64,000 nucleotides of DNA from Thermodesulfovibrionia bacterium (lineage in GTDB: Bacteria; Nitrospirota; Thermodesulfovibrionia; UBA6902). The position numbers and the translations under genes were made by a program. The stretch lies in NCBI GenBank assembly GCA_963699585.1, contig CAVOUK010000002.1, positions 264,811 to 328,810 on the forward strand. The letters are read 5' to 3'. Positions within the stretch are counted from its first letter, which is position 1. Each line of letters opens with the position of its first letter. This document shows, piece after piece, positions 1,804-23,801 of the stretch. Below the pieces are notes generated by a model, which did not search any database, was not told the DNA's origin, and worked only from the letters and a program-made list of their open reading frames with translations.

Positions 1804-2382
1804 ATGACCAATGAGCATGACATAGGCAAGACAGGCATTTCGGTAAGAGAAGGGGTAGTAAGTAGTTTAAAGGGCATTAATGTAATTGAGGCAGAAATAG
1901 TCAATCTTGTGAAGGACACGGTTTCCAGCACTCTTAAGGCGACAAACTCTGTGGCGAATGAAACCGTTAATGTTACAAAGGATGTTTTAAGGGGAGCCAT
2001 CCAGGCAACTGAAGAGGTAGGAACAGGCCTGATGACGAGCACAAAATACGTGGCGAAAGGGGTTATTCTTGGAGTCAATGAAGTCGGCGGAGATGTAATC
2101 ACAGCAGCCGTTCAGATTGCAAAGACCGCTGTACATGGTGCTTCAGAGGTTGGAGCCGATATTGCACTCGTGGCGAGGAGGGCTGCCGAGGGAGTAATAG
2201 AGGCAACCAGAGAGATAGGCGGCAATGCGGAAGAAACGGCAAAAGCGACGGTAACCGGTGCGATTGAGGCAGCTGGCGCCATCAGCAATACGGCTGTGAA
2301 AACCGTAAAAGAGATGCTCATAGGAGTGGCCGAAGGAGTTAAGGAAGTTGCAGGGACTGCCCTGCCGAAGTCAGGCGGTTAA
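1804..2382 (+). CDS. 22-residue-repeat protein (Ala/Gly/Val/Thr-rich, about 8 repeats), copy A
   Basis: AAAGGAG RBS. 192 aa. Repeats register as TKDVLRGAIQATEEVGTGLMTS / TKYVAKGVILGVNEVGGDVITA / AVQIAKTAVHGASEVGADIALV / ARRAAEGVIEATREIGGNAEET and so on. No signal peptide or TM segment. Clearly paralogous to 14049-14726. Confidence 0.8.
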   Translation: MTNEHDIGKTGISVREGVVSSLKGINVIEAEIVNLVKDTVSSTLKATNSVANETVNVTKDVLRGAIQATEEVGTGLMTSTKYVAKGVILGVNEVGGDVITAAVQIAKTAVHGASEVGADIALVARRAAEGVIEATREIGGNAEETAKATVTGAIEAAGAISNTAVKTVKEMLIGVAEGVKEVAGTALPKSGG

Positions 2383-2747: not shown

Positions 2748-3191
2748 TTGATTATGGAGAAGAAGAGAGTCCTTTTCGTATGTATCCATAACAGCGCGCG
2801 CAGCCAGATGGCTGAGGCATTGTTAAACACCCTGGGAGCTGACAGGTTCGAGGCTGAGAGCGCAGGGCTTGAACCTGGCGCACTGAATCCCCTTGCCGTG
2901 GAGGCAATGAAGGAAATCGGGCTTGATATATCGGCAAATCAAACCAAAGGAGTTTTTGACTTCGTAAAACAGGGAAAGTTGTTCAATTATGTCATCACCG
3001 TATGCGATGAAACAAGCGGCAGCAGATGCCCGGTTTTTCCCGGCTATACAAAGAGACTGCACTGGAGCTTTCCCGACCCTTCAGCGCTGAAAGGAACACA
3101 TGAAGAAAAACTGCAGGAGACAAGGAAGATACGGGATGCAATCAAGATAAAGATAGAAACATGGATCAAGGAAACCGGTGAATCAGCATAA
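2748..3191 (+). CDS. arsC: arsenate reductase, thioredoxin-coupled LMW-PTP family
   Basis: [17 protein letters not shown]-loop (CX5R) plus the downstream Cys pair [18 protein letters not shown]. Confidence 0.8.
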
Positions 3192-3299: not shown

Positions 3300-3599
3300 A
3301 TGAAAACAGATACTGTTATGGCTGACAAAGCAAAAGTACAGTGTCCAGTCTGTTCTTCTGATGCATCATACAAATACGGCAGGATTAAGACAGGAAAGCA
3401 ACGTTACATGTGTCTTATGTGTAGCTCACAATTCACCCCCGACGGAAAGAAGTCGTTGGTTAAGGGAAAACCGGCATGTCCTGAATGCGGGAAACCGATG
3501 AATGTATATAAGCTGGAGGGCGACGTCATCAGGTTCAGATGTTCGGGATATCCGATATGCAAAACTTTTAAGAAATTTAAACTCAAGGAGGATGCATGA
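3300..3599 (+). CDS. double zinc-ribbon protein (IS1 InsA-like CxxC...CxxC followed by a topoisomerase-type C4 finger)
   Basis: CPVCSS...GKQRYMCLMCSSQF and CPECGKPMNVYKLEGDVIRFRCSGYPICKTF. The stop overlaps the next start (ATGA at 3596). Confidence 0.55.
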   Translation: MKTDTVMADKAKVQCPVCSSDASYKYGRIKTGKQRYMCLMCSSQFTPDGKKSLVKGKPACPECGKPMNVYKLEGDVIRFRCSGYPICKTFKKFKLKEDA

Positions 3600-3967
3600 G
3601 CTATTACTTGCATAATATTCCGGGAAGGCTCAGGGTAAAGAGCCCGCTTCTGAAAAGAAACGATGCTGCTGCAGACGAACTCAAGATGGCGCTCAGTGCG
3701 ATCCAGGGGATTGCCGCAGTTGACTTCAACCCGATGACAGGGAGTCTCCTGATCAACTATAACCACCGGACAACGAAACACGAGGATATAATCAGTCTGC
3801 TTGAGCGCAAAGGGTATTTTGACCGGAAGAAGGCTGTGTCGAACGATAGTTACTTTCATAATGCCGCAGAAAAGACAGGCCGTGTTATAGGTAAGGCAGC
3901 CCTTGGTATGGCTTTAGAAAAGGCATTTGAAGGCTCCGCGCTTTCACTCATCGGTCTGCTAATCTAA
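3596..3967 (+). CDS. HMA-like 'GRxRxK' small protein a, with hydrophobic C-terminus
   Basis: HNIPGRLRVKSPLLK...IQGIAAVDFNPMTGSLLINYN. There is no CxxC metal site. The C-terminus reads GKAALGMALEKAFEGSALSLIGLLI. Confidence 0.65.
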   Translation: MSYYLHNIPGRLRVKSPLLKRNDAAADELKMALSAIQGIAAVDFNPMTGSLLINYNHRTTKHEDIISLLERKGYFDRKKAVSNDSYFHNAAEKTGRVIGKAALGMALEKAFEGSALSLIGLLI

Positions 3968-4049: not shown

Positions 4050-4922
4050 TCATACCTTATGTGAGAGTTTGGCGTTGAACTCCGATGCATCTTCGTATAA
4101 TTCAACGTAGACGTCTGAAAAACCGAACTGGTCTCTCAGACGTTGTTTCATCGTCCTGATCTTTTCCCTGCCGTATACAGAGCCGTTCGTCCTTATCCTG
4201 ACAGCCATGATTATCCGTTCGGGGGATAGTCCCCATATATGCAAATCCTTGATTGTTTGAATGTCATGAAAGTGACCATTCAGATAGCGTTTGACTTCAT
4301 CGATATCGACCGCTCCAGGATTCCCCTCCATGAGTATGTGAACGCTCTCTTTGATAAGAAAATAGGTCGGATAGGCAGCCAGCAATCCTATGATCACTCC
4401 TGCGAGTGGATCGATGAAGTAAAGGTGAGTATATCTTATCATGAGAGATGAAATTATGACGCCCACAGAGCCAAGGGTGTCATTCAGTATTAGGAGCCGT
4501 GCCCCCTTGATATTCATATCCCCGGCGTGCTTATGAAGCCGTATTAATCCGAAAGCATTCACCATGAGCCCTATCAGAGCGATGAACAGGACCTTATCAG
4601 CCTCAAGAGCTTCAGGATGTATTATCTTATGGTATGCATCAATCAGGACATAGAAAAGCAGGAATCCGACGAGCATCCCGTTGAACAGGCCCGACAGGAC
4701 TTTCGCACGCTCATAACCAAAGGTCTTATCCTTGCTCGGGAGCCTTTGCGCAAGCCTCCCCACGTACAAGGCAATGAACTGTCCGGAAATATTGATAGCC
4801 ATAAACGATGCGTCTGTAACAAGGGCAAGGCTGCGGTAATAAAACCCGCCGAGGAGTTCTACGAAGAAGTAAATGATGGTGAAAAAAAGGACTATCTTCT
4901 GGTCATTATTGCTCATGATCAA
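4050..4922 (-). CDS. cation diffusion facilitator (CDF) family transporter with non-canonical transport-site residues
   Basis: 290 aa with six TM segments, ...FGYERAKVL..., DTLGSVGVI, and a C-terminal LHIWGLSPE domain. TM2 and TM5 site residues read F..N / L..D instead of H..D / H..D. Confidence 0.8.
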   Translation of the reverse strand: MIMSNNDQKIVLFFTIIYFFVELLGGFYYRSLALVTDASFMAINISGQFIALYVGRLAQRLPSKDKTFGYERAKVLSGLFNGMLVGFLLFYVLIDAYHKIIHPEALEADKVLFIALIGLMVNAFGLIRLHKHAGDMNIKGARLLILNDTLGSVGVIISSLMIRYTHLYFIDPLAGVIIGLLAAYPTYFLIKESVHILMEGNPGAVDIDEVKRYLNGHFHDIQTIKDLHIWGLSPERIIMAVRIRTNGSVYGREKIRTMKQRLRDQFGFSDVYVELYEDASEFNAKLSHKV

Positions 4923-5099
4923 TTCCGGGTGATTCGCTACATTCGCGGACTCGATTCATCTTAACATATCAATTTCGCTGTTCCCACGTATTCCTTCATT
5001 ACTTGCCTATAAGGTAATGATTGGCATAGTTCGCCGGATGGTTGAAGATTATGAAGGCATAAAACAGCAGAGGACAGGGGCCTTTAAGGAGGGGGGAGC

Positions 5100-6239: not shown

Positions 6240-6635
6240 ATGCAAGATATTATGAGACAAGGAGTAAAGAGTATGCTTTTTGAGAAAAGGAGGACCATAC
6301 TGCAAAGTGCAAAAGACGGTATGAAGACGATGATTTCGGGAGAAGTAAAAGCGATTCTCGGCCCCGGATTTGATCAGGGTGATATGTCGACGATTTATCA
6401 GATCGAGCATATGCAAAGCAAACAATTCGGCAAACAGATTGATCTCATCAGATCAATCGATATGGCATTGAAAAAGCTCAACGACGGTACGTATAACATT
6501 TGTGAAGAGTGTGATGATGAAATCGGAGAGGAACGGCTGAGGGCGGTTCCTTTTGCGCGCTACTGCAGGAACTGCCAGGAGAAATATGAGATACTGACAT
6601 GTATGGCATCGCCATCCAGGCGAGTCGAATTTTAA
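6240..6635 (+). CDS. DksA/TraR-family C4 zinc-finger protein
   Basis: AGGAGG RBS. C-terminal CEECDDEIGEERLRAVPFARYCRNCQ. Confidence 0.8.
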   Translation: MQDIMRQGVKSMLFEKRRTILQSAKDGMKTMISGEVKAILGPGFDQGDMSTIYQIEHMQSKQFGKQIDLIRSIDMALKKLNDGTYNICEECDDEIGEERLRAVPFARYCRNCQEKYEILTCMASPSRRVEF

Positions 6636-6891: not shown

Positions 6892-7878
6892 TCACTGGTA
6901 TGAAAACACGTTCGTCAGATCTAATAAGTCATCAACAGTAGCAGGATATTCAGGATCGAAGGACGATATGCCAACACTCATAGACAATTTATAGTCAAGA
7001 CTGTTTTTTAAGTTGTAAGTTTCAAAGTTTTTTTGTAATCGAGCTGAAATTGTTTCAACGTAATCTTCGGAAGTTTCTATTGGAAATACTACGAACTCAT
7101 CCCCTCCTATGCGTGCAATAATATCGGACTCACGATAAGTATTTTTTAAAATTCTGGCAACCTCAATTAATGCCCGGTCTCCTTCTTTATGACCGTACTT
7201 ATCATTAATTTTCTTAAAATTATCTATGTCTGCATAAAGTAAAAAGAGTTTCTTGTTTTGACGTTTAGCAAGTTTTAATTGATGTTCCATCAAGTTGAAG
7301 AACCCTCTTCGGTTACACAAACCTGTGAGGTCATCGGCATATGACAGTCTAAGAAGCTCATTTTCCATATTCTTAAGATTACCGATCGCCTTGGAAATAA
7401 TGGTAACAGCTACTGTTTTGCCTTCCTTGTTTTTAACAGGGCTATATGTTTGAAGAAAATATTTACCATCCATGATACTTTTATATTCATACTGAGAAGA
7501 CTCTCCAGTTTCAAATACCCTGTCGACTTTCTCACTAAATAACTCTGATTCCAATTGAGAATGGAAATCGCTAAATGGGCGGCCTTCATATTGGACATTT
7601 GGTAGACCGATCCTTGATAAATGCTTTTTGTTTATAAAGAGATATTTGTAATTTCTATCTACTAAATATATAGAGTCATCTGTTGAATCAACTAAAGAAC
7701 GATATGTACTTTCAGTCTCCTTTCGCTCATAGATATTCTTTTCTAAACTTTTTGTATAAACTAATATGAAGCCAAGAATGATAGAGGTTATTAAGGCAGT
7801 AACCCCGCCTACAATTAAATGTTCATAATTAAAATACGGGATTTCAGGATGCAAGCCGGGCGCTTCAGCGAAAGCCAC
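6892..7878 (-). CDS. membrane-anchored PAS-GGDEF diguanylate cyclase
   Basis: N-terminal TM helix, a PAS-like segment, then ...DDLTGLCNRRGF... and RIGGDEFVVF. Confidence 0.85.
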   Translation of the reverse strand: MAFAEAPGLHPEIPYFNYEHLIVGGVTALITSIILGFILVYTKSLEKNIYERKETESTYRSLVDSTDDSIYLVDRNYKYLFINKKHLSRIGLPNVQYEGRPFSDFHSQLESELFSEKVDRVFETGESSQYEYKSIMDGKYFLQTYSPVKNKEGKTVAVTIISKAIGNLKNMENELLRLSYADDLTGLCNRRGFFNLMEHQLKLAKRQNKKLFLLYADIDNFKKINDKYGHKEGDRALIEVARILKNTYRESDIIARIGGDEFVVFPIETSEDYVETISARLQKNFETYNLKNSLDYKLSMSVGISSFDPEYPATVDDLLDLTNVFSYQ

Positions 7879-8516: not shown

Positions 8517-9495
8517 CTATATCCAACTCAATCGCCTGAAAATAAAAAACATGCACAGCACCTGCAGTATCGAAGCGGCCATGATGACAATAAAGGTCGT
8601 ATAGGTACCGAGGAACATCCATGGGTTATCTACCCCGCCGGGCAAGATGAACATTCATACCGTAAAGGGTCCCTATAAGGGTCACGGGGATGGAGAAGGT
8701 AAACAGGAGCGTCAGGACGGTAAGTATCTTGTTGGTCCTGTCGGAGCTTATGATCACGTCTGTCTCCTTGTAGATATCGAGTGTTTCCCTGCATTCTTCA
8801 AGTGTGGTCCAGACCTTGTCTATGTAATCAGCAAGGTCGCTGAAATAGTCCCCCATGTCCTCACCGGTAAAACGCTTTATTTTTTTTTCAAGCTCATAGA
8901 TGACCCGCTTAAGCGGGAAAACCGTTCGTCTGAAATTGGCGATATTATGGCGCAGGCCCGTCACCTCTCTGACCGCGCTGACATGCTCATCAAAGACCGC
9001 TTCTTCAATATCTCCAATCGTGCTAAGTATCTTTGAAGCCATGACAAGCAGGTTCTCGGACAGACTGTAAATAATCTCATAAAGCAGACTTGCAGGCGAT
9101 GACAAACCGTCAGCAAGCTGAGTCTTCCCGTTCCGTGACGTATCAGGGCGGTTGCCTTTACAGTACAAATTAAAGAGATTTTGCAGCGGCTTCAGCTCTC
9201 CGTTATGCACGGTCACAAGAAAATCCTTTCCCACGAAGACCGAGAGCTGTGTGGGGATGGAATATTTCTTTTCCTTAACGTAACGGGGGAAATGCAGAAT
9301 GATGAAGAGATAGTCATGATATTCATCGATCTTCGGGATCTGGTTTTTTGAAAGACAATCCTCAAGATTGAGGTCATTGAATGGGTGGATCGTTTTCAGG
9401 GAATTTACAAGCTCGGTTTCAGGAGCATCTATATTGATCCAGGTGAAATGACCGGCGTCAACTCTGTATGTAGCAAGAAGCTCGCTTTTGATCAT
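8517..9495 (-). CDS. corA: CorA-family Mg2+/Co2+ channel, frameshifted near 8640
   Basis: ORF 8626-9495 ends ...TLIGTLYGMNV. The expected continuation LPGGVDNPWMFLGTYTTFIVIMAASILQVLCMFFIFRRLSWI* is in the -1 frame and ends at 8517. The start overlaps the metK-like stop (ATGA). Confidence 0.8.
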
Positions 9496-10700
9496 TGTGC
9501 ATCATCCCTGAGCTCCGCAGCCTTATCCGTCAGCTCCCAGGGTAGTCCTATATCCATTCTGCCCACGTGCCCATAGGCGCTGAGTTTTCTGTAGAATCCT
9601 CCCTTAATAGTAGATGGAAGGTATCTGAGGTTAAACCGTTTGAGAATCCCTGCGAGACGAAAATCAAAATGTCTCCCGATGAGTTCGGCGATCTTATCAT
9701 CCGGTATCCTGCCGGTGCCGAAGGTCTCGACCTGAATGCTGACCGGTCGTGCATGTCCTATCGAATAGCTGAGCTGAACCTCACATTCATGAGCAAGTCC
9801 GGCTGCTACTGCATTTTTGGCCGCATATCGCGCTGCGTATGCGCCTACCCGGTCGATCCTCACAGGGTCCTTTCCGCTGAGAGCGGCGCCGCTGTGGCGT
9901 GAATATTCTCCATAGGTGTCTATGGCGTTTTTTCGCCCGGTGAGTCCGGAATGGACAGAAGGCCCGCCGACGATGAAGGGACCGTCAGGATTAATGAAAA
10001 TCCCTGTCCTCTCATCAGGCCTTATTTCTTCATCCTGGAATGCCGGGGTGATTATGTTGTCAATAATGTCGTCCCGTAGCTGTTGAAGATCAGGCCCTCC
10101 TTTGGCAACCGGCTTAAGCTGGGATGCTATGACCGTAACGCTGTGGATCCTGCGCGGCCTGTTGTCCACATATTCAACACCGACCTGTGTCTTGCCGTCA
10201 GGCATGAGGTATGGGAGAATTTTCTGAATTCTCACCGACGACAGCTTTCTTGAAAGCTTATGCGCAAGCCATAACGGAAGCGGCATAAATGAGGCTGTCT
10301 GATTGCATGCATAACCGAAGAGCGTCACCTGGTTTCTGACCGGGATGCGCTCCATCTCCTCATCGGAGAGTTTCCGCTCGTCGAAATTACGCTCATTGTT
10401 CAGCGGTAGTTCTTTAAGGCTTGTAATGATGCTGCATGTCTTGCTGTTGAAATCCTTCTGATCGTATCCTATCTGGTTGATAACATTGCGCGCTACGTTT
10501 GAGAAGTCTACATATGCGGCTGATGAAAACCTGGCAGCGATAAAAAGTATGGCTGTCGAGACAGCGCATTCTGCTATGACCGATGAAAAAGGGTCCTGCT
10601 GGAGAAAATGATCGACGATCGCATCGCTGATCTGATCGCACAGCTTATCAGGATGCCCTTCTGTAACCGACTCTGAGGAAAAAATGAAGTCCTTTTTCAT
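9492..10700 (-). CDS. divergent S-adenosylmethionine synthetase (MetK)-like protein
   Basis: SESVTEGHPDKLCDQISD, LMPDGKTQV, GLTGRK, DTYG...SGKDP.RIDR and AYAARY are all present. GAGDQG, GGEI and GGP.GD.G are replaced (see finding). Confidence 0.8.
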   Translation of the reverse strand: MKKDFIFSSESVTEGHPDKLCDQISDAIVDHFLQQDPFSSVIAECAVSTAILFIAARFSSAAYVDFSNVARNVINQIGYDQKDFNSKTCSIITSLKELPLNNERNFDERKLSDEEMERIPVRNQVTLFGYACNQTASFMPLPLWLAHKLSRKLSSVRIQKILPYLMPDGKTQVGVEYVDNRPRRIHSVTVIASQLKPVAKGGPDLQQLRDDIIDNIITPAFQDEEIRPDERTGIFINPDGPFIVGGPSVHSGLTGRKNAIDTYGEYSRHSGAALSGKDPVRIDRVGAYAARYAAKNAVAAGLAHECEVQLSYSIGHARPVSIQVETFGTGRIPDDKIAELIGRHFDFRLAGILKRFNLRYLPSTIKGGFYRKLSAYGHVGRMDIGLPWELTDKAAELRDDAQ

Positions 10701-13482
10701 GCCACTGCCTCCTTTGCGCTTTCATGCTGACATTGTTGATGTTACCGGCTTCAGTGTCCTTGAGCAGCATCTTTTGCGGTCTCTTCGTGGCCTCGTTAAT
10801 AAGGAGAGGCGTTACTGCTGTGCCTCCGACCACAAGCCAGTCGGCAAGACCAAGAGGCGTGAGACCAAGCAGGTTTCGCAGGCCGGGCACAACCATTGCC
10901 AGTCCCTGTAATCCTGCAGAGCCTGCAAGCGCGGCGTCGAGATAACGGTTCGGCGGTAGGGGCGTACGCCGTTCGCCCTTACTTTGTCATATATGCTGTG
11001 CTTTTCAGAACGGCAGCTTAAGGCATGGAGTATCTGTCCGAAGGTTAGGCTCATAAATGCCATAGTGCCTGCCTGTGCTCCCATGCCATATCTCATGATC
11101 CCGTAGCCGTAGGCCCCCAATGAGCCTGCTGAGAGCATCGCTGACTTCAAAGGCGATCCGTTTGAAGTCATCCTTCCTGACAATCGGCTCATCAGGATTT
11201 CTCGGAGGCATGCTGAGCACATCAGGTTCAGGCGGTTCAAGCGCAAGCGCCAGTCCCGGCGCTATGTCCGAGATGAGGTTGATCCAGAGGAGCTGCATGG
11301 CAGTAAGGGGCTGTCCCATACCGGTTGATATGGCCCCGAACATGACCATGATCTCGCTCAGGTTCGTTGCAAGGAGAAAGTGGACCGATTTACGGATATT
11401 GTTATAGATCGTTCTTCCCTGACTGATTGCAATTATCATAGTCTCGAGGTTGTCGTCTTCGATAACGACATCCGCAACTTCACGTGCCACATCCGTGCCG
11501 GTGTGCCCCATCGCAATACCGATGTCAGCTGCCTTAAGCGCCGGCCCGTCATTGATCCCGTCCCCTGTCATTGCCACAACCCTTCCTGAGGACTGAAGCG
11601 ACTGGACGATCTGGAGCTTATTGGCAGGGCTAACGCGCGCAAATACATGCACCTTTTCAGCCAGCGCCTTCAAGACATCCGGATCGAGGCTGTTCAGGTG
11701 TGTTGAGTCGAGTATTTCGAGCTGCCCGTCTTTGCTGAGGTTCAGTTCTTTGCCGATGGAGTAAGCGGTCGGTCCCTGGTCTCCGGTGATCATGACTGTA
11801 TCAATTCCCGCAACATGATACATGCCTATAAGTTCCTTTACACCGTTTCTTACAGGGTCCATCATTCCGGAAAGACCGAGCCAGACAAAATGCATGGTAT
11901 CGAGTGAGTTATCAGAGGTATCCGGCGTGTCTGACAATTCATTCAATTCATCGGAATATGCATAGGCAAATCCAAGCACCCGTAAGGCTTCTCCGGCCAT
12001 ACGCTCATTTTCGATCTGTATTGCTTCCCTGCTTTCCGCCGTGAGAGGGAGTTTTTGACCGTCCTGCATGTGCCATATACAGATCGACAGGACATCCTCA
12101 GGACTGCCTTTTAAAGCGAATATGGCTGCCCTGCGGTCGTGTGAGGCATTAGGATTAATATCGTGAACAGTTAACATAATATTGCTGTTTTCAGACCTGT
12201 GTCGTATCGTCCTGAGAGGGAATTTGTTCCGGAGTTCAGGCACGTGAACACCCGTGCTTATCGCCACCTGAAGAAGGGCATTCTCGGTTGACGAGCCTCG
12301 GAGTAATAATTCTCCGTTTTCGCTGGAGACGTCGCTTTCATTGCAGAGACATGAAATATGAATGAGTTTCAGCAGTTCATCGCACTCATATGGGTTAATA
12401 TCAGAGGCATCGTTTCGGAATCTCCCTTCAGAGACCTTTAGCCTCTTCATCCCGACGAACATGGAGATAACAGTCATTTTGTTCAGGGTAATGGTCCCGG
12501 TCTTGTCAAGACAGATGGTCTGCACCGAACCGAGAGTTTCTACTGCGTCAAGGTGACGGATAAGTACGTTGTGTTTTCTCATGTTCCTGATGCCGAGCGC
12601 CAGTGTTGTGGTAGCTACCATCGGCAACCCCTCGGGTACTGCGGCAACAGCAAGAGCTATAGAGGTCTTCAGCATCTGGAGAAAGCCATAGCCTCTCAGC
12701 AGTCCTATCAGAAAGACGAGACCACACACGGCTCCGCTTATATAAACAAGCTGAGTGCCCATTTTGTCAAGCTGCCGTTCCATCGGTGTTTCAGGAGGAC
12801 GCGCGGTTCCTACGAGCGTCTGTATTTTGCCGATCTCCGTAAATTTACCGGTTGACGTTACAACTGCAAGTCCCTGTCCCCCGGTCACGAGCGTGCCCAT
12901 ATAGACCATATTCGTCCTGTCCGCAAGCGGGATATCACCTTCAGTAAGCGTCTGAGAGCTTTTTATGACCGGCATGCTCTCACCGGTAAGCGCTGATTCA
13001 TCAACGCTCAGATGATGAGATTCGATCAGCCGCGCGTCCGCTGCTATGTAACTTCCCGGTTTCAGGAGAAGAATATCACCGGGAACTATACTCTCGGCAG
13101 ATAAATTATTAAGCACTCCGTCTCTTATGCATAAAGCAGACGGCCTCACAAGATTTTTTAGAGAATGGATGGTCTTTTCCGCCTGTGTCTCCGTTGTATA
13201 GCCTATGACCCCGTTAATGACGACCACTCCGGCAATCACGACCGCATCGGCGATGCCTCCCGTTGCTATGGAGACTGCTGCCGCAACGCCAAGAAGGGCG
13301 ACAGGAAGGGATTTAAACTGGTCAAAAAAAATGCTGAGTCCGGAACGGGGGACGGATTCGGGGAGCAGATTTGGCCCGAATTTCTTTAATCGCTCAGACG
13401 CGGTGTTTCCTGAAAGCCCCGCTGCCGGCAGCACACCCGCAGAATCAAGCGCTTCACCGGCGCTTTTCAGATGCCATTGCAC
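10648..13482 (-). CDS. P2-type (SERCA/PacL-like, Ca2+-type) cation-transporting P-type ATPase, C-terminal part frameshifted twice
   Basis: LTGES, VPEGLP, ICLDKTGTIT, KGSPE, MMDPVR, MITGD and MTGDGINDGPALKAADIGIAMG are present. The C-terminal TM region continues in ORFs 10812-11246 and 10648-10896, with shifts near 11135 and near 10970. Confidence 0.85.
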
Positions 13483-13880
13483 CTGAGGCTGGTCTTCAGC
13501 ATGGATGACGCTCTTGCGGACCTGGCGACGGCTCTTATTGAGTTTCCTGTCTGGCTCAGTATGACTTCCTGCTGATCTAATGACCGATGTAGATCAGGCT
13601 GCCGGGTTTTTGTTGTGAGCGAGGTACTCTCGGGCGTATGATTATTGCCGTTATATTCTTTTACCGCGGCCTCAATGACCCTGCTTATTATTTCAGCGGT
13701 ATTGCCTGAGTTGAAATTGACAATAACGCTTCCGGTCAGGACATTTGCGGAAAAGCCTGTTATGCCAGGATGAAGACTCAGCGCCTCTTCAATTTTTATC
13801 CTGAGCGGATCTGTTCTGTAAAGCCCTTCAACTTTTAACCGTACCCGGCCTTTTACTGAATTGTGAACGGTATGAACCAC
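13467..13880 (-). CDS. HMA-like 'GRxRxK' small protein b (may originally be an N-terminal domain of the ATPase)
   Basis: VKGRVRLKVEGLYRTDPLRIKIEEALSLHPGITGFSANVLTGSVIVNFN. It overlaps the GTG start of the ATPase. The ATPase frame is open for another roughly 40 codons upstream. Confidence 0.65.
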   Translation of the reverse strand: MVHTVHNSVKGRVRLKVEGLYRTDPLRIKIEEALSLHPGITGFSANVLTGSVIVNFNSGNTAEIISRVIEAAVKEYNGNNHTPESTSLTTKTRQPDLHRSLDQQEVILSQTGNSIRAVARSARASSMLKTSLRCNGI

Positions 13881-13908
13881 ACTATTTATCCTGGAAAAAT
13901 TATTTGGA

Positions 13909-14026
13909 CGCAGATGAACGCTGATAACTGCCGATACAACAAAACGTTATAGTTATTTTATCCTTCACCTTTCCGGTGAAGGATAAATTTATTTTAACTT
14001 CTAAAAAGATCCGCGTTAATCTGCGG
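13909..14026. repeat. degenerate member of the CGCAGAT/ATCTGCG inverted-repeat family flanking a hairpin
   Basis: GACGCAGATGAACG (13908-13921) against CGTTAATCTGCGG (14014-14026). It encloses the perfect hairpin at 13958-13986. Confidence 0.4.
13958..13986. terminator. perfect 12-bp stem / 5-nt loop hairpin between the copy-B repeat-protein gene and the ATPase operon
   Basis: TTATCCTTCACC-tttcc-GGTGAAGGATAA. The U-tract is better on the + strand, while both neighbouring genes are on the - strand, so its function is uncertain. Confidence 0.4.
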
Positions 14027-14048
14027 CTAACTGCCGTTTTTAGATTTA

Positions 14049-14726
14049 TTAACCCCGTTTGCTACTTGTCTTGGTTTTAACCTCCACAGGGGCGGCCTTC
14101 TTTGTGGTTGCGGCTGTTTCAGTCCGTCGCGGTTTTGGGAGCGCAACGTTTGCAACATCCTTAACTCCCTCAACCACGCCTACAAGCATATCCCTGACAG
14201 ATTGTACTGCAGTGGTACCTATTGTGCCTGCTGCTTCCATAGCGCCGTTTACCGCCGATATCGCGACATCACCCGCATTGCCGCCGACTTCCTTGCTTGC
14301 TTCGATTACGCCGTCAACTGCCCTCCGAGCAACAAGGGCCACATCTGCGCCTATATCTGCGGCCCCCTTTACAGCGCCTTTTACTGTCTGACTGGAAACG
14401 GTAATTATGTCTCCTCCGACGTCACTTACGCCCATGACTATTCCCTTTGCAACGCTTTTGGTGCTCAGGATGAGCCCTGTGCCAACTTCTTCAGTTGCCT
14501 GAATAGCGCCCTTTACAACATCTCTTGTGATGTTGACGCTCTCTGTTGCTACCTCACCCGTTGCGCGGAGCGCATTGGATACAGTGCTCCGAACAAGCGT
14601 TACGATCTCAGCCTCGATCTCATTGATCCCTTTAAGGCTGCTGATGACGCCGTCTTTGACAGTGGAACCAGCCCTGCCGATACCTTCCTGAAAACCCTCT
14701 CCGCTCATCACTTGCTCATTCGTCAT
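14049..14726 (-). CDS. 22-residue-repeat protein, copy B (with Lys/Thr-rich C-terminal tail)
   Basis: GGAGG RBS. 225 aa. Same repeat register as copy A (TRDVVKGAIQATEEVGTGLILS / TKSVAKGIVMGVSDVGGDIITV / ...). Roughly 60% identical to copy A by eye. Confidence 0.8.
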   Translation of the reverse strand: MTNEQVMSGEGFQEGIGRAGSTVKDGVISSLKGINEIEAEIVTLVRSTVSNALRATGEVATESVNITRDVVKGAIQATEEVGTGLILSTKSVAKGIVMGVSDVGGDIITVSSQTVKGAVKGAADIGADVALVARRAVDGVIEASKEVGGNAGDVAISAVNGAMEAAGTIGTTAVQSVRDMLVGVVEGVKDVANVALPKPRRTETAATTKKAAPVEVKTKTSSKRG

Positions 14727-14804
14727 AATAGACCTCCTTTTTTCGGTTTGAAATAAATGTAGCGCTTGTGTAAATGAAATTGTTTAGTAATATGATAAAG
14801 AAAC

Positions 14805-14815
14805 AGCGTTACATG
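14805..14815 (-). promoter_or_regulatory. CATGTAACGCT motif upstream of the copy-B repeat-protein gene
   Basis: The reverse complement of AGCGTTACATG reads CATGTAACGCT on the coding strand, about 80-90 nt upstream of ATG 14726. A TATCATATT -10-like box follows; the same 9-mer lies upstream of copy A at about 1697-1705. Confidence 0.25.
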
Positions 14816-14846
14816 AGCGCGACATCCGGGTTAAATTATTATTAAA

Positions 14847-15326
14847 TCATTCCGGCTGCTTATTGTCAGAATTCGATTTAAGGAAAATATTAAGGGCATA
14901 CCATCCGGCTGCGTACCAGGGGATTGCAGCGACATTCCCCCTCCATACCTGGTATATGCCTGCACCAATGAGCGCAAGAACCGCAGCCCCGCCGACATCC
15001 AGTTCGTTCCCTGTAATATCACGTATGGCGACGTTTGCTTCCTTGAATGCATCGTTGACCCTCCGGTGGAGATGTGTACGGGTGTACCGGGGGCCTGCAA
15101 ATGTTAGAAGCTTATTTGTTTTTATCGTTTCAACAATGCTGACGGGATCATGTGAATGATGGATCAATATGCTGCCCGTAAGCTCGCTGATCTCAACTTT
15201 ATTTACTCCTTCAATGCCGGATATCTCATTTAAAAGAAGAGTAAGAAAGTTTATGTCCTTTCTTTTTGAAGGGACCTTGATCCTGATTCGTGAACCTGTT
15301 TGATGGCTGACAAAGGCAACCGGCAT
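14847..15326 (-). CDS. HMA-like 'GRxRxK' small protein c, with C-terminal transmembrane region
   Basis: MPVAFVSHQTGSRIRIKVPSKRKD...EISELTGSILIHH. The C-terminus DVGGAAVLALIGAGIYQVW...IPWYAAGWYALNIFL suggests two TM segments. The ATG lies 1 nt after the upstream stop. Confidence 0.65.
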   Translation of the reverse strand: MPVAFVSHQTGSRIRIKVPSKRKDINFLTLLLNEISGIEGVNKVEISELTGSILIHHSHDPVSIVETIKTNKLLTFAGPRYTRTHLHRRVNDAFKEANVAIRDITGNELDVGGAAVLALIGAGIYQVWRGNVAAIPWYAAGWYALNIFLKSNSDNKQPE

Positions 15327-15327
15327 G

Positions 15328-15618
15328 TCATGCCCCCGCTTCTCCCTCAGGAGCTGGGGCATGCGCAGTTTCGTTATGCGCTTCAGCCATTTCAGCTTTG
15401 GCCTCCGCGACGACATCTTCAGCGACTTCACTCAGCTCAGCAAAAGTCTCTTTCCCCTTCTCATAAAGTACAAGACCGCCCTTGATGGCTGATTTGAGCA
15501 GAGGCTTTGCCACTCCTGCCAGTGCAGGGAGCACTACCGGAGCTAATATCGCACCGCCGATACCGATTGCGAGACCTGTCAACAAATTGCCTTTTAAACC
15601 ATTATCGAATAATCCCAT
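15328..15618 (-). CDS. DUF5132-like small membrane protein
   Basis: GGAGG RBS before ATG 15618. MGLFDNGLKGNLLTGLAIGIGGAILAPVVLPALAGVAKPLLKSAIKGGLVLYEKGKETFAELSEVAEDVVAEAKAEM matches my recollection of the DUF5132 pattern. Confidence 0.5.
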   Translation of the reverse strand: MGLFDNGLKGNLLTGLAIGIGGAILAPVVLPALAGVAKPLLKSAIKGGLVLYEKGKETFAELSEVAEDVVAEAKAEMAEAHNETAHAPAPEGEAGA

Positions 15619-15798
15619 AACGCCTCCAATTGTTCTTGTGTATTGATAGCATGAGTTTAACACCGTCAAAACAGCGTGTCCATGGGATCTTTCATTACCT
15701 GCCTACTTTTCACTGAAATGTAATACTACTGTTATAACGGTGTAACAATAAACTTGCTAACGTATTGATAACGCACAAATATCAGGAGGTGGATAATT

Positions 15799-16063
15799 AT
15801 GATTTTTTACACCGTCAAACATCACATACGTGGAAGAATTAGAGTACAAATACCTCTGATTAAAACGATGACTCTGACAGAACTGAAAGCCCTGGCGGAG
15901 AAAATATTTGCTGAACGACCGGCCTGAAGGCATAAAATACATCAGGGCAAACCCGCTGACCGGCAGCGTCACCATAACGTATGATCCGTCCACGATAGAT
16001 ATTAAAGCATATATAAGAGACCTGGCATCGAGCGAAGAAATACAGCGTCTCACTCTGCAGTAG
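15799..16063 (+). CDS. HMA-like 'GRxRxK' small protein d, frameshifted near 15920
   Basis: AGGAGG RBS. MIFYTVKHHIRGRIRVQIPLIK...AEKIFAE, then a +1 frame gives PEGIKYIRANPLTGSVTITYDPSTIDIKAYIRDL...*. It is not in the ORF track because both halves are under 60 aa. Confidence 0.55.
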
Positions 16064-22122: not shown

Positions 22123-23801
22123 CTCTCAGAATACGTTGCTGTTCCGCCTGGAGCGATTTTAAAAGGTTAAAATCTTTTTTTGCCTCCGCTTCTCTGGTTT
22201 TTCCCTGAAGCTCCTGCAATAATATCTTTCTCTTGTTTCCCTTCATCCTGTTAATGCAATCCTCAAGGGCCTTTTCAGGATTCTCAAAATCTTCCCTGAG
22301 AGACACCTCGGTAAGGAAGTCTTTTTCCTCGCCCTCAGACCGGGAGAGAAGTTCATTGAAATCAGTCAGGCCTGCTTTGACCTTTTTGAAGACCGATTTT
22401 GTTGTTGGGTGTTTGAAATCTTCTTCAGAAAAAGTATCGGCAATTTCTCCGGACCTCTCAGGCAACTGCAGAAGCAGTTTGAATATATATATTTCATCAA
22501 GGGACTTTGGTCTTGACGGGGCCTTCGAAACAGCTTTGGTCTCCTGACTTTTGTTATTTTTCTTCAGTTTCTTGAGCTCCTCGATAATGAAGAATTCATT
22601 GATCCTGAGTTTTTCTGAAAGGGTTTTCACATAGTTCCCCTGCAATACCCTGTCGGATATCCTGGAAATTGTCTGAATTGCTTCATGCGCTATTGAACGT
22701 CTGTCACCTTTCAGCAGCATGTAGAAATCAATTATTGACAGAGGGTGCTGGAGCAGTTCCTGAAACGCTTCCCTGCCGTTCTTTCTTAAAAAGCTGTCAG
22801 GGTCTTCCCTGTCCGGGAGGGCGAGTATCTTTCACATTGAGGCCGCTTTCAAAAAGTATATTGGCAGCATTTTTGACGGCTTTTCTGCCGGCATCATCGC
22901 TATCAAAGACAAGGATGACATCTTCAACAAATCTTTTTATTAATTTTCCGTGTTCCTGAGTAAATGCAGTGCCCAGCGGTGCAACAGAGTTTGTAAAGCC
23001 ATGAATGTGAGAAGTGATAACGTCAAGATATCCTTCCATAAATAATGCACATCCTGTCTCTTTTACCGAATCCTTTGCCCTCTGGAGTCCATAAAGTATC
23101 ATCCGCTTGTTGAAGATGATCGTCTCAGGTGAATTCAGATACTTCGGTTCATCTCCATTGATAGCCCTTCCGCCAAAGGCGATCACATCGCCTTTGAGAT
23201 CATAAATGGGAAACATTATACGGTCCCTGAAAGTATCATAAACACCCTTGGTCCCCTGCGTGGCAAGCCCTGCTTTTTTAGCAACTTCTGTTTTATACCC
23301 TTTGCCTGCAAGATGATTCAGCAGTGCATTCCATGTTTTGGGCGCATAACCAAGGCAAAAGAGTTTCTGTGCTTTAATATCTATTCCGCGCTCGATCAGA
23401 TACCGGTTCGCTTTTTCATTCTTTGCAAGGTGCTGCTGAAAAAATGACACTGCATCTTTATGGATGTTCAGCAGTATTTCCTTTTCACCGGTTTTGACAG
23501 CATCCTTCTGAGAAGATTTTATTGTAACACCTGCTTTTTTGGCGAGGATATTGACCGCTTCAGGAAAAGAAACATTTTCATATTTAACAAGAAAGGAAAA
23601 GATGTCCCCGCCGCTGTTGCAGCCGAAACAGTGGTATATCTGTTTTGACGGGCTTACGGTAAAAGAAGGCGTTTTTTCCGTATGGAAAGGGCAGAGGCCT
23701 TTCCAGTTCTGGCCCGCATGTTTCAGATTCACATATTCGGATATAAGATCAACAATATCCAGCCTGTTTTTTATCTCTTCGAGGACACTGTCGGAAGGCA
23801 T
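22106..23801 (-). CDS. dnaG: DNA primase DnaG, frameshifted near 22845
   Basis: Zinc finger CPFHTEKTPSFTV...YHCFGCNSGGD, TOPRIM EGYLDVI...VLVFDSDDAG. The C-terminal helicase-interaction part is in ORF 22106-22720. Confidence 0.9.

Follow-up and report, generated by a model that had tools for sequence, protein, structure and literature searches.

CoBaHMA paralogues and a Ca2+-type P-type ATPase in a conserved gene neighbourhood of Nitrospirota and Desulfobacterota

CoBaHMA (Conserved Basic residues HMA) domains were first seen as the N-terminal domain of W-type calcyanins (PMC8890360, Benzerara et al. 2022) and are defined by a heavy-metal-associated (HMA)/ferredoxin-like core, an additional strand (β0) that bears a conserved histidine, conserved basic residues and the lack of a CxxC motif (PMC8890360). 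As cited in 10.1101/2024.07.07.602159 and 10.64898/2025.12.07.689555, Gaschignard et al. 2024 (Proteins 92:776) broadened the domain to a bacterial family, and the second of these papers credits that study with the hypothesis of an anionic-lipid or regulatory role. In Microcystis aeruginosa PCC 7806, two DUF5132 genes, a gene for a CoBaHMA-DUF454-Cter hairpin protein and a further CoBaHMA gene flank ccyA and cax, and ccyA is co-expressed with one DUF5132 gene, the CoBaHMA-hairpin gene and the gene of a Ca2+/H+ exchanger (10.1101/2024.07.07.602159). The sole biological link of CoBaHMA so far has been to intracellular calcium-carbonate formation in cyanobacteria. Here we analyze four CoBaHMA units, named a to d, in a stretch of 64,000 nucleotides (nt; the window) from a Thermodesulfovibrionia bacterium of the Nitrospirota (GenBank assembly GCA_963699585.1, contig CAVOUK010000002.1, positions 264,811 to 328,810). 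The setting found here is another one, and highly regular: four paralogues are encoded around a P-type ATPase of the Ca2+ type or fused to it.

We assign a probability of about 0.55 to the reading that these four paralogues, encoded in and beside a conserved operon, regulate or position the Ca2+-type pump by means of a basic face that binds an anionic partner. A preliminary description of this DNA had noted that the stand-alone multi-copy arrangement was not known to be characterized. The domain had in fact already been named, as CoBaHMA and as PF19991. Among searchable papers we found no published description of the regular operon, in which a CoBaHMA-P2A ATPase is accompanied by four classes of paralogues, of its spread in anaerobic Nitrospirota and Desulfobacterota or of the cis-motif reported below.

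Signature, fold and divergence of the four units

The preliminary description had listed four HMA-like units that lack CxxC, and a Pfam profile search and a six-frame profile scan of the whole window agree in finding them. All four exceed the 30-bit gathering cut-off of HMA_2 (PF19991), and copy c aligns to positions 10-141 of the 154 in the profile. The six-frame scan, made with four profiles built from relatives, returned exactly four CoBaHMA places, namely a, b, c and d, the last as complementary halves at 15772-15924 (profile positions 1-32) and 15887-16060 (positions 32-65). The classical HMA profile PF00403 gave 24.0, 15.4, 13.6 and 14.6 bits, in each case under its cut-off of 24.8 bits. 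Copies a, c and d and the 83-residue domain of b contain no cysteine at all, hence no CxxC. The units are members of the CoBaHMA/HMA_2 family, every defining feature tested being present, and profile searches assigned none of them to an unrelated fold. Classical HMA metal binders were considered and rejected on the absence of the CxxC loop and on the sub-threshold PF00403 scores.

These observations also bear on whether the units could act as metallochaperone-type HMA proteins, which would hold a metal through non-cysteine ligands such as the conserved histidine and hand it to the ATPase or to the CDF transporter encoded nearby. We regard this as very unlikely. Apart from the missing cysteines and the PF00403 scores, the domains offer only one conserved potential ligand, and their conserved Arg and Lys residues would repel cations; against this must be set the HMA fold, the weak PF00403 matches, the conservation of the β0 His and the presence nearby of metal transporters (CDF and CorA) and small Cys-rich proteins.

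The motif H-x-x-(P)-G-R-x-R-x-K ... N-x-x-T-G-S is kept within each of the four orthologue groups. Its consensus is H-x-x-P-G-R-L-R-I-K ... T-G-S-L-L-V-N-Y in class a, H-x-x-V-K-G-R-A-R-Y-K-V ... L-T-G-x-V-L-V in class b, S-H-x-T-x-G-R-x-R-x-K-I-P-S-K ... N-P-L-T-G-S in class c and H-H-V-P-G-R-I-R-I-E-V-P ... N-P-L-T-G-S in class d. The shared GRxRxK...TGS motif first noticed in the window is thus conserved in every class, and the conserved His lies one residue farther from G-R in class b than in a, c and d. Among 33 aligned sequences of the c family, H8, R13 and R15 are invariant. All four classes carry a net charge of +3 to +4 and have an isoelectric point of 9.3-9.9 over ~60 residues. The conserved G-R-x-R-x-K and the positive charge agree with the basic residues by which CoBaHMA is defined, and the spatial patch that they would form is predicted.

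Copy c, the one copy modeled, was predicted with AlphaFold2 (AF2) from 33 homologues. The model has the order β0-β1-α1-β2-β3-α2 (strand β0 at residues 3-9, strand 13-17, helix 25-36, strands 41-47 and 52-57, helix 61-70) with a predicted local distance difference test (pLDDT) score of 85-90 over the domain, followed by three helices, the last two of which make a hairpin. Its best Foldseek matches in the PDB are HMA domains (ATP7B, CCS, MerP, Atx1, ZntA, CzcP and the YAM domain of YajR), with probabilities of 0.97-1.0, TM-scores on the target of 0.5-0.66 and E-values of ~1e-2, none reaching E <= 0.001. The HMA layout without CxxC proposed at the outset is consistent with this model, with the HMA_2 matches and with the lack of cysteine. 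The hydrophobic tails, or membrane anchors, then proposed for a and c fared less evenly. In c, AF2 places helices at 111-128 and 137-153, and this C-terminal two-helix hairpin contains a conserved GNELD...PWYAAxWYALNIFLKS. The tail of a reaches a maximum Kyte-Doolittle (KD) hydropathy of 1.31 and is amphipathic rather than clearly transmembrane (TM), and copy d is small and has no hydrophobic segment. Among a, c and d, only c has a credible membrane-associating tail, of a hydropathy that we return to below.

A profile made from the three in-frame CoBaHMA domains of the window matched 3,739 cluster representatives at E <= 1e-3 in a collection of 1.84 billion proteins, with lengths that fit a monodomain form of ~123 residues, a hairpin form of ~160 residues, a tandem form and an ATPase fusion of 800-1100 residues. 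When the c alignment was run against a single genome for each species, 209 species matched. The 80 best-matching loci were then analyzed: their stop-to-stop open reading frames (ORFs) were searched with profiles that started from the window proteins and were iterated. The loci come from Thermodesulfovibrionia and other Nitrospirota, Syntrophia, Syntrophorhabdia, Syntrophobacteria, Geobacteraceae, Desulfobulbaceae and NC10, and the closest relatives of the window are metagenome-assembled genomes (MAGs) of Thermodesulfovibrionia and Nitrospiraceae. The copies in the window are 19-35% identical to one another. Independent assemblies contain a syntenic orthologue of each, at 66-89% identity; copy a, for example, is 89% identical to a 123-residue orthologue in locus L001. 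Class a was found in 34 loci, beside a Zn-ribbon gene, and class d in 37, divergently upstream of the operon and often adjoining a small Cys-rich protein; copy c has ~60 homologues (59 counted) of ~160 residues, mostly in Nitrospirota MAGs. Judged by these identities, the four units are old paralogues, each separately conserved. Mutual identities of no more than 19-35%, together with separate orthologues for each copy, led us to reject a recent duplication or a collapsed repeat, and the copies do not fall together into one.

Copy b, the ATPase frame and the quality of the assembly

Four proteins had been described in the window; the four units stand, three of them as free proteins and one as a domain of the ATPase. 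In L001 (with L005, Nitrospiraceae SURF_66), which holds the nearest homologue of c on a long contig, a 1061-residue protein combines HMA_2, Cation_ATPase_N, E1-E2_ATPase, Hydrolase and Cation_ATPase_C, and the gene order is DUF5132, a 159-residue HMA_2 protein, a 226-residue protein, the 1061-residue ATPase and metK. The window ATPase itself matches Cation_ATPase_N/C and E1-E2_ATPase in Pfam. When the L001 ATPase was compared with the window by tblastn, its residues 1-83 aligned in frame -3 (13880-13632) and the match resumed in frame -2 by ~13593, becoming solid from ~13570, so that only residues 1-83 of the 137-residue ORF b are genuine and its last 54 residues are an out-of-frame read-through. 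The ATPase is 84% identical to that of L001 over 960 residues and shows no further decay outside the indels, where a -1/+1 pair at ~10968 and ~11135 scrambles ~57 codons. Domain and ATPase share one reading frame in 71 related loci, 60 of these frames being longer than 900 residues, and the fused ATPases of related genomes measure ~1020-1090 residues. Judged by these alignments, copy b is the N-terminal domain of the neighboring P2A-type ATPase and not a separate gene, as had been suspected when it was described as a detached N-terminal domain. Extensions of this kind on P2-type ATPases, mentioned at that stage for some cyanobacteria, are seen here in Nitrospirota and Desulfobacterota. A word-indexed search with the 137-residue ORF matched only itself because half of the query is out of frame; the fusion was traced via the gene neighbors of copy c.

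In the 60 full-length fusions, the linker between CoBaHMA and the ATPase core has 41-98 residues (median 66) with an abundance of R, S and K. Of the 30 linkers listed first, nearly all end in SRRK(L/V)R(K/R)x(V/I)xxAE(D/E)Q. In the window, the corresponding basic stretch is upstream of GTG 13482, the mechanical start of the ORF, and this position adds to the grounds for the fused reading. The stretch is a candidate regulatory or lipid-binding helix. At its other end, the ATPase frame overlaps metK by 53 nt (10648-10700) before it meets a stop, compared with 4 nt in L001; a further indel or a stop codon lost in the assembly may account for this.

The split of copy b is one of at least seven single-base frameshifts in ~20 kb that are syntenic with three intact relatives. 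Copy d, which the preliminary description had reconstructed across a frameshift near 15920, contains an additional base somewhere in 15913-15925 when compared with L003, L004 and L005. The ORF list of the window shows it as two short plus-strand ORFs in different frames, 15799-15927 and 15908-16063, and its L001 orthologue is a single frame of 93 residues (MISYTVKHHIPGRIRVHIP...NPLTGSITIMYDP...), in agreement with the reconstruction. In addition, DnaG (22797-23801, minus strand) has 334 residues here and 561 in its 90% cluster, and ATPases split in a like manner occur in other long-contig 'MFD' MAGs. We read the indels as assembly errors because of their frequency and because of the intact relatives, not because of sequence context; an origin in homopolymers was considered and rejected, as the contexts are not long homopolymers. 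The 'detached domain' b and the 'missed ORF' d would accordingly be assembly indels and not biology, and gene calls throughout the window should be treated as error-prone.

That assembly quality raises the further possibility that the copies themselves are artefacts, either collapsed or duplicated repeats or decaying pseudogenes, to which the many frameshifts, including those in b/ATPase and in d, might seem to point. Given the low mutual identity of the copies, the 66-89% identity to syntenic orthologues in independent assemblies and genes that are free of further decay outside the indels, we find this barely credible.

The operon, its upstream element and its neighbors

The order DUF5132, c, p226, CoBaHMA-ATPase, metK hardly varies across the 80 loci, which span at least three phyla (Nitrospirota, Desulfobacterota and NC10). 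DUF5132 is present in 79 of them, the ATPase in 73, p226 in 70 and the Zn-ribbon protein in 40; absences mostly match contig ends. About 247 CoBaHMA ORFs were counted, ~3 per locus. The DUF5132 protein has one strong TM helix (KD 2.23, residues 10-38) followed by a long helix, and its gene lies directly upstream of c in 79 loci, its stop in the window falling 1 nt ahead of the start of c. The p226 protein has no match in Pfam or NCBIfam. Its AF2 model has seven helices (mean pLDDT 79, predicted TM-score 0.67), and the only matches in a fold search with it were de novo designed helical repeats, with no natural homologue among them. The protein is charged, appears soluble and is not an apolar glycine zipper. 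Some homologues of p226 and of its paralogue p192 bear a C-terminal MucR/Ros zinc-finger domain, and one gave a sub-threshold CsbD match (34.4 against 40 bits).

The recurrence, in most of these loci, of free HMA-fold genes beside an ATPase that begins with the same fold recalls CopZ and Atx1 with CopA and Ccc2, and a, c and d might accordingly be docking partners of the CoBaHMA domain or of the A/N domains of the ATPase and not lipid binders. Pairing would then turn the pump on or off or bring something to it, with the basic face contacting an acidic protein surface. The separate conservation of each paralogue class, which suggests distinct roles, is in keeping with such docking, and the HMA fold is a known protein-protein module, as in the plant iHMA-effector complexes among the fold matches of the c model. 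All four classes are basic, however, and pairing like with like would be electrostatically unfavorable unless an anion bridges the two, which leads us to consider docking rather unlikely.

Upstream of the operon lies a 16-nt element, listed in Table 1. The motif TAGGYARGTAATGAAA, allowing at most two substitutions, has 73 matches in the 1.24 Mb of the 80 loci, and 63 of these are upstream of DUF5132 at a median distance of 85 nt, where the core TAATGAAA occurs only in the operon-sense orientation. A σ70-like -35 follows the motif directly, with a -10 ~17 nt later. Elsewhere in the loci the motif also precedes p226 paralogues and one CDF. Because the core has one orientation and is directly followed by the -35/-10 pair, the motif resembles an activator site more than an RNA element, and a small regulon is probably defined by the activator that binds it. 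A riboswitch or other known RNA was considered and rejected: the region upstream of the operon has no Rfam match at the gathering threshold or at E <= 1, and an element beside a -35/-10 pair is better read as a DNA site.

The cis-motif common to the operon and the CDF gene would also suit a cluster that builds or serves an intracellular compartment for cation storage or mineral, comparable to the amorphous calcium-carbonate inclusions (iACC) of cyanobacteria. In such a scheme the ATPase and the CDF would fill the compartment. Its boundary would be shaped or coated by DUF5132, the hairpin of c and p226, and the CoBaHMA domains would direct proteins there. The resemblance to Microcystis, where DUF5132, CoBaHMA-hairpin, CoBaHMA and Ca2+ transporter genes surround the iACC marker ccyA, is suggestive; many calcyanins start with a CoBaHMA domain (PMC8890360), and intracellular carbonates have been reported in some Nitrospirota (10.64898/2025.12.07.689555; PMC12710302). 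We nevertheless think a compartment quite unlikely. Pfam and NCBIfam scans of the locus proteins, made without a calcyanin profile, found no calcyanin-like (GlyZip)3 protein, p226 is charged and seemingly soluble rather than membrane-shaping, the carriers are uncultured MAGs known here from genes alone, and a P2A pump that exports Ca2+ at the cytoplasmic membrane is the simpler reading.

Table 1. Features of the window (positions counted from its first nucleotide)
Feature	Positions	Strand	Remarks
CoBaHMA paralogue a	3596-3967	+	123 residues, stand-alone; HMA_2 57.7 bits
CoBaHMA unit b	13632-13880 (genuine part of ORF 13467-13880)	-	Residues 1-83, ATPase N-terminal domain; HMA_2 34.2 bits
CoBaHMA paralogue c	14847-15326 (ORF to 15431; true start ATG 15326)	-	159 residues; HMA_2 53.5 bits
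CoBaHMA paralogue d	15799-16063	+	~87 residues, stand-alone; HMA_2 39.7 bits when joined across the frameshift
CoBaHMA-P2A-type ATPase gene, full	10648-13880	-	One linker indel (~13590-13632) and a -1/+1 pair (~10968, ~11135)
Basic stretch KSRRQVRKSVIHAED	13492-13536	-	Before the ATPase core; consensus SRRK(L/V)R(K/R)x(V/I)xxAE(D/E)Q
DUF5132	15328-15618	-	96 residues from ATG 15618; PF17195 49.3 bits; first operon gene
p226	14049-14726	-	225 residues, helical repeat, basic disordered tail; between c and ATPase
metK (S-adenosylmethionine synthetase)	9492-10700	-	Directly downstream of ATPase; position kept in 66/80 loci
16-nt cis-element TAGGCAGGTAATGAAA	15690-15705	-	~75-90 nt upstream of the DUF5132 start codon
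Second motif copy	4994-5009	-	One mismatch; upstream of the CDF gene
CDF transporter	4050-4922	-	Pfam Cation_efflux; atypical transport site
p192, second p226 paralogue	1804-2382	+	Found by tblastn and profile match
Double zinc-ribbon protein	3300-3599	+	99 residues; Pfam Zn_ribbon; overlaps the start of a
Frameshift sites	~5512, ~8645, ~10968, ~11135, ~13600, ~15920, ~17310		DUF1571, CorA, ATPase (three sites), CoBaHMA d, PstS

An accessory block precedes the operon in the order cys60 (1436-1618), p192, cys68 (2532-2738), an ArsC-like gene (2748-3191), Zn-ribbon and a. The p192 protein is ~60% identical to the L001 orthologue of p226 by tblastn and 63% identical to the window p226 by alignment; like p226 it belongs to no Pfam family and is a predicted seven-helix repeat protein with a basic tail. 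The Zn-ribbon protein is a conserved partner of class a, adjoining CoBaHMA a in the loci. The CDF has F/N (TM2) and L/D (TM5) at site A, where ZnT1-type CDFs have H/D and H/D; its residues DASFMAIN and L(L/I)xND recur in all four further loci with this CDF, and judged by them it is an atypical subfamily.

Several further genes were noted. The plus-strand products of cys60 and cys68, of 60 and 68 residues, each have at least four spaced cysteines in a CP...C...C...CP-like arrangement and lack a match in Pfam or NCBIfam; their relatives recur in 28 and 17 of the 80 loci, respectively, often adjoining CoBaHMA d or a. Between the accessory block and the main operon are the ArsC-type low-molecular-weight phosphatase (+) and CorA (8626-9495, -), as well as a PAS-GGDEF protein (6892-7878, -) and a DksA/TraR zinc-finger protein (6240-6635, +). 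ArsC-like genes occur near the operon in 13 loci and CorA in 10. No relative of c was found in a plasmid collection. A magnetosome, ferrosome or island context was considered and rejected, the rest of the window being ordinary chromosome (IF-2, GlmS, UvrD and the pst operon) and the ATPase being P2A, not P1B.

A proposed regulated cation pump and its relation to known systems

The best PDB relatives of the ATPase are human SPCA1 (7yag), Listeria LMCA1 (6zhf) and SERCA (1iwo), and in an alignment with SERCA2 the residues E309 (in PEGLP), N768 and E771 (TM5) and N796 and D800 (TM6) are kept, with T799 replaced by Ser. The substrate is most likely Ca2+, or perhaps Mn2+, and because the residues of the SERCA-type Ca2+ site are kept this ion is probably exported from the cytoplasm. 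On our preferred reading, in which the four paralogues regulate or position the pump, the pump would move Ca2+ or Mn2+ out of the cytoplasm, and neither its CoBaHMA domain nor the related ones would use cysteines to hold metal. The partner of their conserved basic face would be anionic, with acidic membrane lipids as the most plausible candidate, and through this contact the pump would be regulated or positioned. By analogy to HMA chaperones and P1B ATPases, the paralogues that are free or tethered to the membrane would either compete with the N-terminal domain of the pump or cooperate with it. DUF5132 would be a small partner in the membrane and p226 a soluble partner.

Several findings weigh against this reading. 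SERCA2 residue E908 is Gln in the window ATPase, and the top two NCBIfam models, which are the PMR1-type and SERCA-type Ca2+ models, both score under their equivalog cut-offs (620 against 798.3 and 545 against 703.4 bits); because of these scores and of E908Q, we can only infer the ion specificity. The hairpin of copy c is of borderline hydropathy, with a maximum of 1.59 over a 19-residue window (KD19), and the third basic position of the signature is Q or E in class d. Neither the conservation of metK at the end of the operon nor the atypical CDF is accounted for by a simple model of pump regulation. Finally, real pseudogenization, rather than assembly error, may explain the indels.

A bolder proposal joins the operon, the free CoBaHMA proteins, the atypical CDF, the small Cys-rich proteins and the cis-motif in an undescribed, widespread system for the sequestration of Ca2+ or another divalent cation. 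It would occur among the 209 species, in anaerobic Nitrospirota, Desulfobacterota and NC10, and would have an evolutionary core in common with the carbonate neighborhood of cyanobacteria. We hold this to be quite doubtful. If true, CoBaHMA would be a common currency of membrane targeting or regulation, and the system could underlie mineral or cation-storage bodies. The locus offers a compact, testable system, made up of a pump with its own N-terminal domain, three free relatives of that domain and two small partners, in which the role of a basic HMA domain without cysteines can be studied.

How the locus differs from what is known depends on the point of comparison. With the CoBaHMA/PF19991 family the units share the HMA core, β0 with its His, the basic residues of β1 and the absence of CxxC, and the family likewise exists both as monodomain proteins and fused to membrane proteins. 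The difference is that here there are four separately conserved paralogue classes in an operon with a P2A-type ATPase, and that they occur in Nitrospirota and Desulfobacterota rather than cyanobacteria, without an identified calcyanin (GlyZip)3 partner. The HMA domains (PF00403) of P1B-type ATPases and the soluble chaperones CopZ/Atx1 and MerP have the same fold, and in those systems too a free gene for the small domain lies beside a P-type ATPase that carries the domain N-terminally. The window domains, however, have neither CxxC nor any cysteine and a basic surface, and P1B ATPases are of the CPx type, whereas the window ATPase is P2A (PEGLP, Cation_ATPase_N/C). The YAM domain of E. coli YajR (4q2m), which is among the matches of the c model, is likewise a cysteine-less HMA fold on a membrane transporter and presumed to be regulatory, but it is attached C-terminally to an MFS transporter and has neither β0 nor the His/Arg signature. 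The P2A Ca2+-ATPases SPCA1, LMCA1 and SERCA share with the window pump the DKTGT, TGES and PEGLP motifs and the ten-TM Cation_ATPase_N/C architecture, and differ from it by the extra ~140-residue N-terminal CoBaHMA domain plus linker that the window pump possesses. The ccyA neighborhood of Microcystis, finally, uses a Ca2+/H+ exchanger where the present locus has a P-type ATPase that itself carries a CoBaHMA domain; the Microcystis neighborhood lacks p226 and metK, and ccyA was not identified here, in searches that used no calcyanin profile. Likened by architecture, the two neighborhoods have in common DUF5132 (a TM helix and a long helix), a hairpin CoBaHMA protein (like c), a monodomain CoBaHMA protein (like a and d) and a Ca2+ transporter, which raises the question of whether the module of DUF5132, CoBaHMA and Ca2+ transporter found beside ccyA is a general bacterial device for handling calcium.

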